Counted from the stretch's first letter, positions 2,628 through 21,003 are shown. The stretch is 22,911 bases of DNA from a virus (IMGVR_UViG_2541047860_000001); one strand, 5' to 3'. Translations and numbers: made by a program. The notes: generated by a model not told the origin, from the sequence alone.

Positions 2628-3326
2628 TTACTGCGAAAGTTTGTTAATGGAAAGGAAGCCGCCAAAGTTGCCGACGTTATTGCGAAACTTACAGCCGCTC
2701 AGGCATTTGCTGCATTTATCCTTCGTGATATCGGACGTCGGCTGGTCATATTCATCCGCGACTGCCGGACCGTGATAACCGCACTCATCACCGCGATAGG
2801 TCCAGGTGCAGGTGTTGGCCAGCATGATACGTCCCGGAAAAACAGCGCCATCCGTTTCCGTCGGCGTGGACAGTACAAAGGAGGCACTCACCGCGCTCAG
2901 TTCGCTGCACTGCTCGATGCGCCAGCGGCTGATCACCTCCTGCTCCGGATCGGCGTCACTGTTTCCGTTGACGAAGTTCACCGCATCCAGAAAACGGGCG
3001 TAAACCTTACGCCGGACCACCGTTCCGCCGACCAGACTCTGCAGATCTTCCGCCATCCCGGTGACCATACCGTACAGGTTAGAAACCGTCAGCGTGGGGC
3101 GCGTACTGGTGCCTTTGCCATTCAGTTCAAAACCACTCCCCTGAATGGGATACGGCTGATACTGTCGCCCCTGCCAGGTGACCGGCTCACCTTTTTCGTT
3201 CTGCTCATTACAGAAAAAATAACGTTCTCCACCGACCTCTGTCAGATCGATTTCCCAGAGCACCACGCTGGCCGACTGCTCCGCACGGGTGCATTCATTC
3301 AGTGTTTCCTGCCGGATATCCTGCAT
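2628..3326 (-). CDS. L: Minor tail protein L (232 aa)
   Basis: 232 aa as in lambda L; MQDIRQETLNECTRAEQSASVVLWEIDLTEVGGERYFFCNEQNEKGE...; adjoins M at 3326. Confidence 0.92.
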   Translation of the reverse strand: MQDIRQETLNECTRAEQSASVVLWEIDLTEVGGERYFFCNEQNEKGEPVTWQGRQYQPYPIQGSGFELNGKGTSTRPTLTVSNLYGMVTGMAEDLQSLVGGTVVRRKVYARFLDAVNFVNGNSDADPEQEVISRWRIEQCSELSAVSASFVLSTPTETDGAVFPGRIMLANTCTWTYRGDECGYHGPAVADEYDQPTSDITKDKCSKCLSGCKFRNNVGNFGGFLSINKLSQ

Positions 3327-3655
3327 CAGTTCACCACCTGTTCAAACTCTGCGCTGAACTCAACACGCAGCATACTGACCCGCGACGACCATTTTGCGCA
3401 GGTCACCTTTATCTGCCGCCACTCATAAGGCGGCGTCCACAGAAAGGACTTCCAGCCCCCGTGCTCAGCCAGAAACGACTCAAGCGCCGTGGCCTCCCAA
3501 CGGGGAACAGAAAGCGTCACGCTGTACGTTTTCAGGTCGGCATTCAGCCCGGCAGGCGCTCGCTGGGAATAGCCATCACCAAAGCGCACCTTTCTTACGG
3601 AAGGGGCCGAAGCCACATCCATACCGGGTTTCACTTTCCAGCGGAAGGTTTTCAT
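3326..3655 (-). CDS. M: Minor tail protein M (109 aa)
   Basis: 109 aa, MKTFRWKVKPGMDVASAPSVRKVRFGDGYSQRA..., same length and position as lambda M; overlaps the H stop. Confidence 0.92.
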   Translation of the reverse strand: MKTFRWKVKPGMDVASAPSVRKVRFGDGYSQRAPAGLNADLKTYSVTLSVPRWEATALESFLAEHGGWKSFLWTPPYEWRQIKVTCAKWSSRVSMLRVEFSAEFEQVVN

Positions 3656-6213
3656 CGTCCACCTCCGGAGAACAGACCACCATCGCGCATCTGTGTCTGA
3701 ATTTCATCACGGGCACCCTTGCGGGCCATGTCATACACTGCCTTCATCATCTGTGGACCTGGCAGACCATTCGTACCGTCGTTCTGAATCACCACGTGAT
3801 TGTTCTGATTAAAATTAATGCCTTCAGCCCGCCGCATCTGCGCCGGACTTCCGGCACCGCCCACATAACCACCTTCCGCATAGCCCCGCATCAGGCGGTA
3901 CAGGTTGCCGACACCAATCCGGCTGGTTGCCTCCTTCGTGAAGACAAATTCACCACGGTGAACAATCCCCGCTGGCTCATATTTGCCGCCGGTTCCCGTA
4001 AATCCTCCGGTTGCAAAATGGAATTTCGCCGCAGCGGCCTGAATGGCTGTACCGCCTGACGCGGATGCGCCGCCACCAACAGCCCCGCCAATGGCGCTGC
4101 CGATACTCCCGACAATCCCCACCATTGCCTGCTTAAGCAGAATTTCTGTCATCATGGACAGCACGGAACGGGTGAAGCTGCGCCAGTTCTGCTCACTGCC
4201 GGTCAGCATCGCCGCCATATTCTGTGCAATACCATCAAAGGTCTGCGTGGCTGCACTTTTTACCTGCGACATACTGTCCGTGGCGCTCTCTTCCCACTCA
4301 CTCCAGCCGGACTTCAGGCCTGCCATCCAGCTCCCGCGAAGCTGGTCTTCAGCCGCCCAGGTCTTTTTCTGCTCTGACATGACGTTATTCAGCGCCAGCG
4401 GATTATCGCCATACTGTTCCTTCAGGCGCTGTTCCGTGGCTTCCCGTTCTGCCTGCCGGTCAGTCAGCCCCCGGCTTTTCGCATCAATGGCGGCCCGTTT
4501 TGCCCGTTGCTGCTGTGCGAATTTATCCGCCTGCTGCGCCAGCGCGTTCAGGCGCTCCTGATACGTAACCTTGTCGCCAAGTGCAGCCAGCTGGCGTTTG
4601 TACTCCAGCGTCTCATCTTTATGCGTCAGCAGGGATTTCTCCTGTGCAGACAGCTGGCGACGTTGCGCCGCCTCCTCCAGTACCGCGAACTGACTCTCCG
4701 CCTTCCACAAATCCCGGCGCTGCTGGCTGATTTTCTCATTCGCTCCGGCATGCTTCTCCAGCGTCCGGAGTTCTGCCTGAAGCGTCAGCAGGGCAGCATG
4801 AGCACTGTCTTCCTGACGATCGCCCGCAGACACCTTCACGCCGGACTGTTTCGGCTTTTTCAGCGTCGCTTCATAATCCTTTTTCGCCGCCGCCATCAGC
4901 GTGTTGTAATCCGCCTGCAGGATTTTCCCGTCTTTCAGTGCCTTGTTCAGTTCTTCCTGACGGGCGGTATATTTCTCCAGCGGCGTCTGCAGCCGTTCGT
5001 AAGCCTTCTGCGCCTCTTCGGTATATTTCAGCCGTGACGCTTCGGTATCGCTCTGCTGCTGCGCATTTTTGTCCTGTTGAGTCTGCTGCTCAGCCTTCTT
5101 TCGGGCGGCTTCAAGCGCAAGACGGGCCTTTTCACGATCATCCCAGTAACGCGCCCGCGCTTCATCGTTAACAAAATAATCATCCTTGCGCAGATTCCAG
5201 ATGTCGTCTGCTTTCTTAAACGCAGCCTCTGCCTTAATCAGCATCTCCTGCGCGGTATCAGGACGACCAATATCCAGCACCGCATCCCACATGGATTTGA
5301 ATGCCCGCGCTGTCCTGTCTGCCCAGGTCTCCAGCGTGCCCATGTTCTCTTTCAGCCGGCGGGTCTGGTCATCAAACCCTTTCGTTGCGGCCTCGTTCGC
5401 CGCCTGCAATGCCCCGGCCTCATCGCCGGAACGCTGCAACTGAGCAACATACGCAATCTGCTCCGCCGTCACGTTATGGAACTGGCGTGCCATCGCTGTC
5501 AGCCCTGACGTCGGGTCTGTGGTCAGCTTCCCGAAGGCTTCAGCGACCTTGTCCATCTCCACGCCGGATGCAGAGGAGAAACGCGCCACACTCTGGCTGA
5601 TGGACGCAATCTGAGCCTCACCGCTTACCCCCGCCTTAACCAGTGCGCTGAGTGACTCGCTGGTCTGGTTAAACGTCAGCCCTGCCGCCTGCCCGGCTCT
5701 GGACAGGACCAGCATACGATCTGCCGTCAGTCCCGCCTGATTGCCGGAAAGGACCAGCGTTTTGTTGAAATCGGACAGGGTTGAGTTGCCCTGATACCAG
5801 GCATACGCCAGCGCACCGGTCGCCACCGCCAGCGAGGTGGCCCCCACCATCGGCAGGGTGATCGCACCGGCAAGCCCCCTGAACATGGGGATCATCCCGC
5901 CGAAGGAGTCCTTAACCTGACCACCCTGTTGCAGCAGGATCAGCCACGGACTTTGCCCGCCTGCAAGCTGCGTGGCCACGTCGGTGAACTGTGCAGGCAG
6001 CATACGCATGGCGGTTTTATACTGCCCGACGGAAATCCCCGCTTTCTGTGCAGCCAGCGCCTGTCGGCTCAGCGACTGTTCAACGACTGCCGCTGTTTTT
6101 TTCGCATCACTTTCCGTACCGGAAAAATGACGCCTGACTCTGGCCATCTGCTCGTCAAATCTGGCCGCATCCAGACTCAAATCAACGACCAGATCGCCTA
6201 CCGGTTCAGCCAT
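3652..6213 (-). CDS. H: Tail tape measure protein H (853 aa)
   Basis: 853 aa, identical in length to lambda H; coiled-coil-rich centre (ERLNALAQQADKFAQQQRAKRAA...) and Gly-rich C-terminal region. Confidence 0.93.
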   Translation of the reverse strand: MAEPVGDLVVDLSLDAARFDEQMARVRRHFSGTESDAKKTAAVVEQSLSRQALAAQKAGISVGQYKTAMRMLPAQFTDVATQLAGGQSPWLILLQQGGQVKDSFGGMIPMFRGLAGAITLPMVGATSLAVATGALAYAWYQGNSTLSDFNKTLVLSGNQAGLTADRMLVLSRAGQAAGLTFNQTSESLSALVKAGVSGEAQIASISQSVARFSSASGVEMDKVAEAFGKLTTDPTSGLTAMARQFHNVTAEQIAYVAQLQRSGDEAGALQAANEAATKGFDDQTRRLKENMGTLETWADRTARAFKSMWDAVLDIGRPDTAQEMLIKAEAAFKKADDIWNLRKDDYFVNDEARARYWDDREKARLALEAARKKAEQQTQQDKNAQQQSDTEASRLKYTEEAQKAYERLQTPLEKYTARQEELNKALKDGKILQADYNTLMAAAKKDYEATLKKPKQSGVKVSAGDRQEDSAHAALLTLQAELRTLEKHAGANEKISQQRRDLWKAESQFAVLEEAAQRRQLSAQEKSLLTHKDETLEYKRQLAALGDKVTYQERLNALAQQADKFAQQQRAKRAAIDAKSRGLTDRQAEREATEQRLKEQYGDNPLALNNVMSEQKKTWAAEDQLRGSWMAGLKSGWSEWEESATDSMSQVKSAATQTFDGIAQNMAAMLTGSEQNWRSFTRSVLSMMTEILLKQAMVGIVGSIGSAIGGAVGGGASASGGTAIQAAAAKFHFATGGFTGTGGKYEPAGIVHRGEFVFTKEATSRIGVGNLYRLMRGYAEGGYVGGAGSPAQMRRAEGINFNQNNHVVIQNDGTNGLPGPQMMKAVYDMARKGARDEIQTQMRDGGLFSGGGR

Positions 6214-12337: not shown

Positions 12338-16018
<3,681 letters not shown>

Positions 16019-16044
<26 letters not shown>

Positions 16045-16564
16045 TCAGCAACCCCGGTATCAGTTCATCCAGCGCGGCTGCTTTGTTCATGGCTTTGATG
16101 ATATCCCGTTTCAGGAAATCAACATGTCGGTTTTCCAGTTCCGGAAAACGCCGCTGCACCGACAGGGGGATCCCGTCGAGAATACTGGCAATTTCACCTG
16201 CGATCCGCGACAGCACGAAAGTACAGAATGCGGTTTCCACCACTTCAGCGGAGTCTCTGGCATTTTTCAGCTCCTGTGCGTCGGCCTGCGCACGCGTAAG
16301 TCGATGGCGTTCGTACTCAATAGTCCCTGGCTGGAGATCTGTCTCGCTGGCCTGCCGCAGTTCTTCAACTTCCCGGCGCAGCTTTTCGTTCTCAATTTCA
16401 GCATCCCTTTCGGCATACCATCTTATAACGGCGGCAGAGTCATAAAGCACCTCATTACCCTTGCCACCGCCTCGCAGAACGGGCATTCCCTGTTCCTGCC
16501 AGTTCTGAATGGTACGGATACTCGCACCGAAAATGTCAGCCAGCTGCTTTTTGTTGACTTCCAT
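16019..16564 (-). CDS. Nu1: Terminase small subunit Nu1 (181 aa)
   Basis: 181 aa, MEVNKKQLADIFGASIRTIQNWQEQGMPVLRGGGKGNEVLYDSAAVIRWYAERDAEIENEKLRREVEELRQ..., matches lambda Nu1. Confidence 0.94.
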
Positions 16565-16790
16565 TGTTCATTCCACGGCCAAAAACAGAGAAAGGAAACG
16601 ACAGAGGCCCAAAAGCTCGTTTTCAGCACCTGTCGTTTCCTTTCTTTTCAGGGGGTATTTTAAATAAAAACATTAAGTTACGACGAAGAAGAACGGAAAT
16701 GCCTTAAACCGGAAAATTTTCATAAATAGCGAAAACCCGCGAGGTCGCCGCCCCGTAACCTGTCGGATCGCCGGAAAGGACCCGCAAAAT
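16565..16790 (-). other. cos packaging site: cosB (about 16565-16741), cosN with the 12-nt cohesive-end sequence (16742-16753, plus strand AGGTCGCCGCCC = reverse complement of GGGCGGCGACCT), cosQ side (about 16754-16790)
   Basis: Seen: gaaaacccgcg-aggtcgccgccc-cgtaacctgtcggatcgccggaaaggaccc is the reverse complement of the lambda left-end/right-end junction. Established: lambda cos architecture. Confidence 0.88.
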
Positions 16791-16952
16791 GATAATAATT
16801 ATCATCTGCATGTCACAACGTGCATCTACGCCATCAAACCACGTCAAATAATCAATTATGACGCAGATATCGTATTAATTGATCTGCATCAACTTAACGT
16901 AAAAACAACTTCAGACAATACAAATCAGCGACACTGAATACGGGACAACCTC

Positions 16953-17186
16953 ATGTCAACGAAGAACAGAACCCGCAGAACAACAACCCGCAACATCCGC
17001 TTTCCTAACCAAATGATTGAACAAATTAACATCGCTCTTGAGCAAAAAGGGTCCGGGAATTTCTCAGCCTGGGTCATTGAAGCCTGCCGCCGGAGACTGT
17101 GCTCAGAAAAAAGAGTTTCTTCTGAAGCAAACAAAGAAAAGAGTGACATTACTGAATTGCTCAGAAAACAGGTCAGACCAGATTGA
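16953..17186 (+). CDS. ynfO: Small basic protein with ribbon-helix-helix-like core (77 aa); YnfO-like, equivalent to an ORF near the lambda right end
   Basis: Seen: MSTKNRTRRTTTRNIRFPNQMIEQINIALEQKGSGNFSAWVIEACRRRL... The strand/helix/turn/helix spacing is my reading, not a search result. Symbol assigned by position and memory of K-12 Qin. Confidence 0.7.
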   Translation: MSTKNRTRRTTTRNIRFPNQMIEQINIALEQKGSGNFSAWVIEACRRRLCSEKRVSSEANKEKSDITELLRKQVRPD

Positions 17187-17243
17187 AGCAATTTAGATAA
17201 TCGTGCAGACTACGCCCCCTCATATCACATGGAAGGTTTATCT

Positions 17244-17654
17244 ATGGATCAGGTAGTCATTTTTAAACAAATATTTGATAAAGTTCGAAACGATTTAAAC
17301 TATCAATGGTTTTATTCTGAGCTAAAACGTCACAATGTCTCACATTACATTTACTATTTAGCCACAGAGAATGTTCATATTGTATTAAAAAATGATAATA
17401 CAGTGTTATTAAAGGGCCTAAAAAACATTGTGTCTGTCAAATTTTCAAAGGATAGGCATCTTATAGAAACGACCTCTAATAAGCTGAAATCCAGAGAGAT
17501 CACATTTCAGGAATACAGAAGAAACCTTGCTAAAGCAGGAGTTTTTCGGTGGGTTACAAATATCCACGAACAAAAAAGATATTACTATACCTTTGATAAT
17601 TCATTACTATTTACTGAAAGCATCCAGAAAACTACACAGATCTTACCACGCTAA
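17244..17654 (+). CDS. ydfO: DUF1398-type protein, YdfO-like (136 aa from [11 protein letters not shown]; the track ORF starts 5 codons upstream at 17229)
   Basis: Seen: GGAAGG 9 nt before the ATG at 17244; the sequence (…[46 protein letters not shown]...) matches my memory of E. coli YdfO. Function unknown. Confidence 0.75.
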
Positions 17655-17662
17655 ACCATAAC

Positions 17663-17691
17663 GTCCGGCTTCTCTCACTCCTGAGCCGGAC
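17663..17691 (+). terminator. Possible stem-loop between convergent ydfO and gnsB (GTCCGGCT / AGCCGGAC, 13-nt loop); no clear U-tract
   Basis: Seen: 8-bp inverted repeat immediately after the ydfO stop. Weak as an intrinsic terminator. Confidence 0.3.
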
Positions 17692-17805
17692 TGCATTGGT
17701 TTAATAAAAACCATCAACAATTGTGATTTAGATATTCGGAACCATTCAAATATAACAAAACCCCGTAAAAACGAGGTTTATGGATAAATTTTATTATTGA
17801 ATACA

Positions 17806-17979
17806 TCAGATTAAATTAATCTTGACATCATAGCTTTCAAGACCCGTCATTTTTTCCCGTGCGGTAAACTGAATACTGGTAACTTCTTTCCCGGTCTTTT
17901 TCTTAAGTTCAATAATTTTTTTTGTTATATATTCAGAAATATCTGCTTCTGCTTTTGTTTTTAAGTTTTCAATATTCAT
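17806..17979 (-). CDS. gnsB: GnsA/GnsB-family small protein (57 aa); not in the ORF track because it is under 60 aa
   Basis: Seen: minus-strand ORF M(M)NIENLKTKAEADISEYITKKIIELKKKTGKEVTSIQFTAREKMTGLESYDVKINLI; tandem ATGs at 17982 and 17979. Established: GnsB is encoded in K-12 Qin. Confidence 0.75.
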   Translation of the reverse strand: MNIENLKTKAEADISEYITKKIIELKKKTGKEVTSIQFTAREKMTGLESYDVKINLI

Positions 17980-18150
17980 CATTTCCTCTTTTAGTCTGTT
18001 ATGACTTTCCAGTTACACAGTAAGTCGATTATATGGTGCAAACGTGTAAAAGATAAGATGAAACATCGCAATAATCAACATACGATAGTCTAAATTTTAC
18101 ACAAACAGACAAAGAAAATTTTCCTGAATTATCAATACAATAGCATCAAA

Positions 18151-18381
18151 TCAACTCAAGAGCCTTATTGCTGCTTCCAGAATTTCTTCTGAAGTAACAT
18201 GTCGATCCGCGGCTACATAAATGACTTTATGATCTCCGGTCAGAGATGGAAACCCTGCGGCCATTACAGTAAGGTGTGTTTTTTCGCCATTTGGATATTC
18301 ACGCATGATGGTGTTAACTCCAGTCATCGCTGGCACTACCACTGCAGGTTCAGAGTTAAAAAAAACTATGATTTTTTTCAT
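18151..18381 (-). CDS. Small protein of unknown function (76 aa from MKKIIVFFNSEPAVVVPAMTGV...; alternative start 18423 gives 90 aa); by position possibly YnfN-like
   Basis: ORF track 18151-18423; no strong SD before either start; sits between gnsB and cspI. I cannot confirm identity from memory. Confidence 0.5.
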   Translation of the reverse strand: MKKIIVFFNSEPAVVVPAMTGVNTIMREYPNGEKTHLTVMAAGFPSLTGDHKVIYVAADRHVTSEEILEAAIRLLS

Positions 18382-18418
18382 GATGTTACCGTAGTATGTG
18401 AGTATCCATCGAATAGAT

Positions 18419-18446
18419 ACCAAGCAAAAAAGCTCCCGAAGGAGCC
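18419..18446 (-). terminator. Candidate intrinsic terminator downstream of cspI (GCUCC-UUCG-GGAGC + U6)
   Basis: Seen: 5-bp GC stem at 18432-18445 with a run of 6 A on the plus strand (U in the minus transcript). Short stem; it overlaps the longer alternative start of the adjacent small ORF. Confidence 0.4.
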
Positions 18447-18652
18447 TTCATTTTCACTTTTTTAAATCCAACGACAGACGGCTGGCATTTAAGTATTGTG
18501 AAATATTATCAAATGTAATCATCATTGATTTACAAAAGATACATTTTGCCCCGAAAGGATTCATGTCAGAAACATCAAAAGATGATGTTCTATACTGGGA
18601 ACCATGACAACACGGGCATCTAAAGTGAATATGGTTTGTAATATTGTCTACC

Positions 18653-18865
18653 TCAAAGCGCCACTACATGAACAGCGGCAGGACCTTTAGGTCCGTTCTC
18701 AATACCAAATTCAACTTCCTGATTCTCAGTTAATGTTTTGAAATCGTTGCTCTGAATTGCTGAGAAATGGACAAACACATCTTTGCTGCCATCTTTCGGC
18801 GTGATGAAACCAAAACCTTTTTCAGGGTTAAACCATTTCACTAAACCAGTCATTTTGTTAGACAT
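18653..18865 (-). CDS. cspI: Cold-shock protein, CspA family (70 aa), CspI
   Basis: Seen: [70 protein letters not shown]; RNP1-like KGFGFI and RNP2-like VFVHF motifs; matches remembered CspI. Confidence 0.9.
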
Positions 18866-19228
18866 AATTATTACCTTTTGAAGAAATTAGCCCTTGGGCA
18901 GAATGGTCCGAAAAAAAATATCAGAGAGAAAAACCAACAAGGAAATCTCAAGAGGTACAAATAATAAAATTATAACAATGACTGCTTCAGATAAATTTGT
19001 AACAAACCAGAACACCATTAACGCATGATTAACCACCCATAGCAAGGATTACTTTTGTAAAGAAAAACACAGCAATGAAAGAATAGCTTTATTTATTAAT
19101 AATAACGTGTCATTCTGATTAAGACCTTTTATCTTACCCTTAAGATTTCAGGAATTTTGGCTCATGGAAGAGTCCTTTTTATTTAAATTTTACATTCCGC
19201 GATGTAAATGTTCCGATTTAATATTACC

Positions 19229-20252
<1,024 letters not shown>

Positions 20253-20256
<4 letters not shown>

Positions 20257-20564
20257 ATATATTTATGATGAGGACGCTCGTGCTTATTGGCAGGATTTTC
20301 AATCTTAAAGGAGTACTGATGCTGCAGATAAGACTCAACTTTTTCTGACAATTTTTCTGCTACTTCCAGGAAGACTTGCCGGACGCTCCTTCTGGCTGCT
20401 GCCTCATAAAACTCCAGCGCAGCTCCTTCAACACGGTCCATGGCGACATCCAGGTCAAAAATTTCACCGTCAAAGCGTTCTTTGTCCTGTAAGGCTACAG
20501 TTACCGTAACTTTATTCTCAAAATTACGGACTCCTTTCACAACCAGTTCATAGTCTTGAGTCAT
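20253..20564 (-). CDS. ydfR: DUF1327-type protein of unknown function (103 aa) between holin and endolysin
   Basis: Seen: MTQDYELVVKGVRNFENKVTVTVALQDKERFDGEIFDLDVAMDRVEGAALEFYEAAARR...; GGAGAG SD; stop overlaps the endolysin ATG (ATGA). Symbol by synteny with K-12 Qin. Confidence 0.75.
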
Positions 20565-20568
20565 TGGA

Positions 20569-20784
20569 TTACTCTCCTCTCGCAGCCTTACGCCTGTCTT
20601 CTTTAATCTTGAAATAAAGATTTGTCAGATACGTCAGCAGGCCAAAAACCAGGCTACCCAGCACACCGATTGCAGCCCACTGTGACGGAGTTACTTTATC
20701 GAGTAACTGCAATGCCCAGAAACCAGCATTACCCGCCGATGTGCCATAGGCAACACCTGTTGTTAACTTATCCATTGATTTCAT
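20569..20784 (-). CDS. essQ: Class II holin of S21 pinholin type (71 aa) with dual-start motif MKSM
   Basis: Seen: [71 protein letters not shown], two TM segments, close to phage-21 S; GGGGTGAGGA SD before the ATG at 20784. The track ORF starting at 20859 is an extension without RBS. Confidence 0.88.
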
Positions 20785-21003
20785 ATCCTCACCCCGATGT
20801 ACACGGATGGTGCAATATGTTTGAAAAGATCGGAGTCTACGGGGTAGTTTTGACAGCACACGTTGTTCTCAACGGCGCTAAAAAAACATACACATTAAAA
20901 ATGTGGGTAATTATTTTGAAAGAAAGTCATATATAAAATAATAATACGAGAAATGTTTTCATATTTAGTGTACTGTATACGGCCATTTATACAGGAAAAG
21001 CCT

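Follow-up and report, generated by a model that had tools for sequence, protein, structure and literature searches.

Lambdoid phages and prophages carry, between cos and the lysis genes, a pair of small genes that goes by several names: ynfO and ydfO in the Qin prophage of Escherichia coli K-12; ylcI and ybcV in DLP12, with ybcW between them; and, in lambda, a 64-aa open reading frame (ORF) that is often left unnamed, followed by lambdap79 and lambdap78. The lambda series consists of the 64-aa YnfO homologue, a 68-aa ORF on the opposite strand, a DUF1398 gene labeled “putative envelope protein”, and bor, which is co-oriented with the YnfO and DUF1398 genes. Both ynfO and ydfO are listed among the uncharacterized genes in a 2024 survey of the y-ome, and none of the papers that we found mentioning ynfO gives it a function. 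Here we describe the corresponding genes of a 22,911-nt viral sequence (IMGVR_UViG_2541047860_000001; hereafter “the window”), which lie on its plus strand at 16953–17186 and 17244–17654, in the same position and orientation as in Qin, DLP12, and lambda. An initial annotation had described a ribbon-helix-helix (RHH)-like small protein followed by a DUF1398 protein, both functionally uncharacterized (as the y-ome survey bears out), and had proposed that they form a regulator/effector or toxin–antitoxin-like module. The ORF pair is not new; it is the already annotated Qin-type pair ynfO and ydfO. We consider it likely that these are two adjacent, separable lambdoid accessory genes rather than a fixed regulator/effector or toxin–antitoxin pair.

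Identity of the gene pair

The ynfO gene of the window (ATG at 16953, stop codon at 17184–17186) encodes a 77-aa protein that matches Pfam DUF3950 (PF13132; 75.6 bits versus a cutoff of 25) and the NCBIfam YlcI/YnfO family (NF041551; 36.6 bits versus a cutoff of 30). The 136-aa product of ydfO matches DUF1398 (PF07166) with 157.7 bits versus a cutoff of 22, over profile positions 1–119 of 119, and is identical at 135 of 136 residues to PDB entry 2HH8, the “hypothetical protein ydfO” of K-12. The longest downstream ORF runs from 17229 to 17654 (141 aa), and the 136-aa protein results from initiation at an internal ATG, at 17244; this start is backed by homologues, the distant ones of which begin at the equivalent methionine. 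A Shine–Dalgarno sequence, GGAAGG, lies at 17231–17236, 7 nt before the ATG. Annotated ynfO–ydfO–gnsB loci of many E. coli chromosomes match the surrounding 1.5-kb stretch at 100% identity, 4844 of 5426 complete E. coli genomes contain at least part of it, and phage PhiR42_1 matches it at 99.8% identity. The prophage here appears complete.

The descriptive part of the initial annotation is borne out at each of these points. The first ORF is basic, with a net charge of about +8 (17 Lys or Arg versus 9 Asp or Glu); the second follows on the same strand after 57 nt, close to the 55 nt first given, and has both the DUF1398 similarity and the good Shine–Dalgarno sequence ascribed to it. The pair also sits in an AT-rich stretch between cos and the lysis genes, a moron-like position: GC content is 0.32–0.44 across the accessory region as compared to 0.52–0.59 in the terminase genes, and ynfO and ydfO are antisense to late transcription, the Nu1, A, and lysis genes all lying on the minus strand.

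Both ORFs are genuine genes under purifying selection and not chance ORFs. Codons 1–50 of ynfO, compared with a copy from a Shiga toxin (Stx)-converting phage, give a ratio of nonsynonymous to synonymous divergence (pN/pS) of 0.17, with pS at 0.46, and ydfO gives 0.24–0.29 against three divergent copies (from lambda, E. albertii, and locus L107). The Stx-phage homology to the window begins exactly at the ynfO ATG and stops at codon 47, between flanks that are unrelated; the conserved unit is thus the ynfO coding core and not a cis element. We had considered that ynfO might be conserved as a cos-linked cis element, and rejected this on the same extent of homology and the pN/pS of 0.17.

Separate distribution of ynfO and ydfO

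Phage records searched by tblastn contain the YnfO core in 153 cases and YdfO in 43, with Stx-converting phages making up most of the surplus. The ynfO core occupies 8362 places in 3785 of the 5426 complete E. coli genomes, and ydfO 3876 places in 3019; one O157:H7 strain has six ynfO-core places versus a single ydfO. The Stx phages carry a solo DUF3950 gene, on the opposite strand, between Rz and an HNH/TerS/TerL module. More distant YnfO homologues, at about 32–44% identity, occur in satellites resembling phage-inducible chromosomal islands (PICIs) of Proteus, Yersinia, Salmonella, and Pasteurella, in the company of integrase, AlpA, Bro/AntA, and D5-type primase genes; in the PICI-like satellite loci examined, gene calling gave no DUF1398 gene. 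Conversely, DUF1398 genes without YnfO are found at ycgX-type chromosomal loci (44–49% identity), in phages whose terminase is a different one, and in Raoultella, and DUF1398 homologues are widespread in Raoultella and Klebsiella aerogenes assemblies. Two phage loci with a different small/large terminase pair, L072 (2460–2954) and L107 (1298–1855), still have lambdap79, the DUF1398 gene, and a spacer of the lambda type and have no ynfO core. Because these phages keep the DUF1398 cassette without the core, core and cassette recombine independently.

These distributions bear directly on the proposal that the pair is a dedicated cassette, in which YnfO, as an RHH antitoxin or repressor, would control or neutralize YdfO as the effector or toxin. 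Much in the layout invites that proposal: the genes share a strand, are 57 nt apart, and have no terminator-like site in the gap; an RHH-like small protein upstream of a protein of roughly 130 aa is the arrangement of many type II toxin–antitoxin systems; the RHH proteins among the top structural neighbors of YnfO are the antitoxins KacA and ParD; and ynfO stands upstream of nearly all phage-type ydfO copies beside a lambda-type cos. Yet each gene is widespread without the other, and a DUF1398 gene in Raoultella has no YnfO gene upstream. The initial annotation had looked to co-occurrence of the two genes across prophages, and largely the opposite is found, YnfO being without DUF1398 in most phage records and E. 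coli copies. The bicistronic inheritance conserved in type II toxin–antitoxin systems is likewise not seen in the counts of 153 versus 43 phage records and 8362 versus 3876 E. coli places.

In our scan of genome contigs for related loci, lambda control DNA was a heavy contaminant among unrelated taxa. Loci L087–L126 are contigs of 3.5 kb or roughly 48 kb, assigned to Brevibacillus, Arcanobacterium, Flavobacterium, Cohnella, and others, that carry the lambda ynfO-like gene and lambdap78; they look like lambda control-DNA contamination. The noisy, frameshifted protein matches that we met in ENA probably have the same origin.

Mosaic anatomy of the locus

The conserved core of ynfO, codons 1–50 (16953–17102, plus strand), is the only part common to all lambdoid variants. 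Residues 1–50 are almost invariant, and the tails that follow are wholly different from one variant to the next. In the window the variable C-terminal tail (residues 51–77; 17103–17186) is encoded by junction DNA and then, from 17166–17170 onward, by the upstream block of ydfO, such that the last six ynfO codons are ydfO regulatory DNA; the tail can therefore vary completely while the core holds, being encoded by whichever DNA has been joined on the downstream side. Comparison with lambda places the joints. A block flanking cosN (16560–17115) is 95.7% identical to lambda, the homology within ynfO ending at codon 55 (window position 17115), and a second block (17170–17673) is 84% identical. Between these lambda-matching blocks there are 54 bp in the window versus 613 bp in both lambda and DLP12. 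The extra 613-bp segment, which sets those two apart from the window, carries the 68-aa opposite-strand gene lambdap79/ybcW (3213–3419 in our lambda locus, L001; absent from the window), and its intervention accounts for the different, shorter tails of the YnfO homologues in lambda and DLP12.

On the other side of the joint, the block upstream of the DUF1398 gene, from GGTCAGACC to the ATG and roughly 75 bp long, is kept in every arrangement. It starts with a PdhR-box-like sequence, AACAGGTCAGACCAGAT (17167–17183), and its GGAAGG Shine–Dalgarno sequence is invariant in all six aligned loci. A recurrent breakpoint lies within ynfO itself, at codons 17–19 (17001–17008), where there is also an IS5 target, CTAA. 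In three independent loci ynfO has been cut at these codons and ydfO is 100% intact: L023 has a complete insertion sequence IS5 at the CTAA target, L011 has the interior of Nu1 joined at the same point, and L027 has tail-fiber/invertase DNA joined there.

This anatomy also counts against a dedicated cassette. In lambda and DLP12 the pair is separated by 613 bp and a gene on the opposite strand; ydfO comes with conserved upstream DNA of its own, in which there is a host PdhR box; and ynfO has been destroyed by IS5 or by deletion with ydfO left whole. The pair differs in the same respects from ParDE and KacAT, in that its linkage is not conserved, ynfO can be lost with ydfO kept, and the ydfO product has no toxin-family match. 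Searches of PADLOC-DB returned nothing at E values up to 1 for YnfO, YdfO, the neighboring YnfN-like protein, or GnsB. An overexpression clone of ybcV from the ASKA collection could be scored for a glycogen phenotype (PMC2853380), and in another report YdfO overexpression is cited as protective, raising oxidative-stress resistance (PMC4077768). Judged from the ynfO-less ydfO loci, these overexpression reports, and the toxin-family searches, nothing points to toxicity of the downstream product. The regulator/effector module is thus not upheld, nor is its toxin–antitoxin form: we regard the dedicated cassette as improbable and a toxin–antitoxin reading as unlikely. Two separable genes remain the reading that we favor.

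YdfO, a probably cytoplasmic protein under apparent host control

YdfO has been solved as a soluble protein by nuclear magnetic resonance (2HH8), and its sequence has neither a signal peptide nor a hydrophobic segment. Published expression data concern both ydfO and its DLP12 paralogue ybcV. A PdhR site detected by genomic SELEX (systematic evolution of ligands by exponential enrichment) has been reported for the K-12 interval in which ynfO and ydfO converge on gnsB, and is identical to the box at 17167–17183; the same study found ybcV mRNA decreased 10-fold in a pdhR mutant (PMC7660256). Ionic liquid induced ydfO 12-fold by microarray and 117-fold by quantitative PCR (PMC4077768), and its expression also differed when DicC was induced (PMC11430063). 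Work on H-NS-dependent repression found ybcV raised by over 1000-fold when T4 MotB was overexpressed. A Keio mutant of ybcV exists, and knock-down of lambdap78 by CRISPR interference (CRISPRi) left plating unaffected, with an efficiency of plating of 1.9 (PMC10695390). The expression data point to DUF1398 gene transcription that is host-controlled, stress-responsive, and carried out from the prophage. YdfO would then be a cytoplasmic, host-regulated lysogenic-conversion protein, responsive to stress and expressed from the prophage.

In the window, which is without the lambda-type 613-bp spacer, the genes are only 57 nt apart, and for this reason cotranscription of ynfO and ydfO is possible. 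It would make ydfO at most an incidental passenger of a ynfO promoter.

Legacy labels suggest instead that YdfO is a component of the virion or envelope: PHROG 413 is labeled “head protein”, and lambda records say “putative envelope protein” or “head protein”. We hold this to be very improbable. The gene is transcribed against the late operon, the lambdap78 knock-down had no plating effect, the protein was soluble and lacks the sequence features of an exported or membrane protein noted above, and solo DUF1398 homologues are found on chromosomes outside prophages. For the neighboring lambda gene, lambdap79 was scored as essential in the CRISPRi study, though reported to be non-essential (PMC10695390); perhaps the score reflects a polar effect on late transcription. 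A weak match of YdfO to parafibromin (E value 0.013) disappeared when the family profile was used, and we rejected it as chance.

A lysogenic-conversion role for YdfO invites comparison with the lambda morons bor and lom. Like them, the pair is an AT-rich insert between modules; its transcription runs counter to the late operon or is independent of it, and, as far as lambdap78 shows, the insert is dispensable for plaque formation (PMC10695390). The features by which morons are recognized are present: a distinct GC content, location on the strand opposite to the late genes, hairpins after ydfO, the non-essential lambdap78, and ydfO transcripts in K-12. The products differ: Bor and Lom have known phenotypes and are outer-membrane or lipoproteins, whereas YdfO is probably cytoplasmic and YnfO is a probable DNA binder.

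YnfO, a putative Arc-like regulator

AlphaFold2, run on a single chain, predicts for YnfO an extended N-terminus (coil, residues 1–18), a helix at 19–32, and a second helix from 34 onward, both helices having a length that suits an RHH protein, with a predicted local distance difference test (pLDDT) score of 84–86 for residues 21–50. Among 27 YnfO-family sequences from many genera, I15, R16, F17, P18, F37, S38, W40, V41, and C45 are invariant. YnfO is like Arc and Mnt of phage P22 in its size, its basic N-terminal arm, the motif N-[IL]-R-[FW]-P leading into helix A, the Gly-containing turn, and the Ser N-cap that starts helix B. An hhalign comparison aligns YnfO residues 11–33 with Arc residues 8–30 (the Arc sequence having been checked against 1ARQ) and sets N14, R16, F17, and P18 of YnfO on N11, R13, W14, and P15 of Arc, thus NIRFP on NLRWP; the match is not significant, with a probability of only 2.3% and 8%. 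N11 and R13 are base-contacting residues in the Arc–operator complex. Some family members have sub-threshold matches to Pfam HicB_lk_antitox (E values 0.016–0.15) over the C-terminal segment of that model, and the C-terminal part of HicB antitoxins is an RHH segment. The Arc Pfam model (PF03869) does not detect YnfO, no PDB sequence or profile matches it, and a Foldseek search was also empty. Membership in the RHH superfamily was therefore not established by similarity in the hhalign, HicB_lk_antitox, and PDB searches. The strand–helix–helix pattern named in the initial annotation is a prediction; the two predicted helices and the Arc register agree with it, and no significant sequence or profile match was found. 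An Arc-like RHH fold for YnfO is plausible on the predicted structure. YnfO differs from Arc and Mnt also in location, its genes lying near cos or in satellite regulatory regions rather than in the immunity region.

In the PICI-like elements about 217 bp separate the ynfO homologue from the primase operon, from which it diverges, and this interval holds two to three copies of (A/T)AGGTGTG-N4-CAC, spaced 23 and 45–47 bp apart in an arrangement conserved among four genera (around 3780–4000 in loci L132–L139 and 2380–2500 in L130). The last repeat ends about 15–25 bp before the ATG of the homologue. Such placement suggests a stand-alone regulator. We propose that YnfO would act as a dimeric Arc-like RHH protein, binding its operator via a β-ribbon (N14 and R16) and the basic N-terminal arm, and that, acting alone and not as a dedicated regulator of ydfO, this small protein would repress its own promoter and the divergently oriented neighboring one. 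In Pasteurella phage Pmp7, a 59-aa YnfO homologue is unannotated and overlaps, in antisense, an annotated “transcriptional repressor” coding sequence.

Some observations weigh against separable genes with YnfO as a regulator of its own surroundings. Phage-type ydfO (at least 76% identity) beside a lambda-type cos nearly always has ynfO upstream, and in this subset a functional link between the two may exist. A simple promoter scan found no sigma-70-like site on the plus strand upstream of ynfO or ydfO, and candidate −10 and −35 elements near the two genes, inspected by eye, were unconvincing. No lambdoid YnfO operator emerged from the comparison of the window with the Stx-phage flanks, where shared k-mers are at chance level. 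Finally, no copy of the satellite-type repeat GGTGTG-N4-CAC lies close to ynfO.

A more specific possibility is that YnfO silences, during lysogeny, the operon that it adjoins, acting on packaging genes across cos in lambdoid prophages and on the replication operon in PICI-like satellites; in a lysogen it would, for example, keep terminase from being expressed and cos from being cut. The gene is always opposite in strand to the surrounding operon, and in phages it adjoins the terminase module whatever its type, Nu1/A here and HNH-TerS-TerL in the Stx phages; the divergence of the satellite homologues from the primase operon, with its operator-like repeat arrays, is also in keeping with such a role, as is a minus-strand sigma-70-like site (10 of 12 positions) that reads from 16816 toward cos and Nu1. 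Nonetheless, late genes are silent anyway without Q, the DNA binding of YnfO is a prediction, and neither the Stx-phage flanks nor the satellite repeat provided a shared operator. The promoter-like site, moreover, is a consensus match from a scan that gave fewer sites than shuffled sequence. We judge the silencer role unlikely, and retain separable genes with YnfO as a putative local regulator.

The interval between cosN and ynfO contains a Fur-box-like palindrome, CAAAATGATAATAATTATC (16785–16803), that agrees with 16 of 19 Fur consensus positions, with none expected in shuffles. It adjoins a cosQ-like AGGACCC (16777–16783) and overlaps the −10 element of the minus-strand site GTGACA-16-TATCAT (16816 to 16789) that points toward cos and Nu1. 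Its lambda counterpart is presumably GATGATAATCATTATCAC.

Surrounding features of the window

Read in reverse, the window carries the right end of a lambdoid late region; to the left of the accessory region it has terminase gene A at 14119–16044 and Nu1 at 16019–16564 (Pfam Phage_Nu1, E value 2e-101), both on the minus strand. The left boundary is cosN, AGGTCGCCGCCC (16742–16753), 200 bp upstream of ynfO; we take this sequence to be the reverse complement of the lambda 12-nt cohesive end. Directly 3′ of the ydfO stop codon lies a GC-rich 9-bp hairpin (17663–17691, plus strand), without a clean U-tract, that is a candidate transcript end or stabilizer. A terminator-like hairpin, called on the minus strand, follows at 17758–17779, between ydfO and the convergent gnsB (17806–17982, minus strand; Pfam GnsAB_toxin, E value 3e-35). 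Next comes a ynfN-like ORF (18151–18423, minus strand), which has no Pfam family and a match to PHROG 3425; it and gnsB are both on the late-operon strand. The minus-strand genes continue rightward from these two with a cspI-like cold-shock gene, an Rz-like spanin, lysozyme, DUF1327, and a P21-type holin; the lysis genes (holin, lysozyme, and spanin) lie at 19229–20859. Across the cspI-like gene and its leader (18626–19011, minus strand), the Rfam cspA thermoregulator model is matched over its full length, scoring 112.8 bits versus a gathering score of 78.

Implications

Within the E. coli and lambda gene sets, both ynfO and ydfO fall in the uncharacterized fraction. About 70% of complete E. 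coli genomes (3785 of 5426) carry the ynfO core, often in multiple copies, and it is also present in Stx phages and phage satellites. With the two genes taken as separate units, different experiments become worthwhile, and toxin–antitoxin assays are a poor first choice; for DUF1398, the labels “envelope protein” and “head protein” found in databases are unsupported. Of the leads from this locus, the YnfO family is the most interesting, as a possible small Arc-like repressor encoded antisense in phage and satellite operons. Speculatively, and with little confidence as yet, we suggest that the YlcI/YnfO family could be an unrecognized class of small Arc-like repressors, each encoded antisense inside the operon that it would silence during lysogeny; the silenced genes may be those for packaging, beside cos, in lambdoid prophages, and the replication operon in PICI-like satellites. 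Were this true, a lysogen would possibly be shielded from terminase cutting its own cos, and lambda would carry an overlooked, cI-independent layer of silencing.
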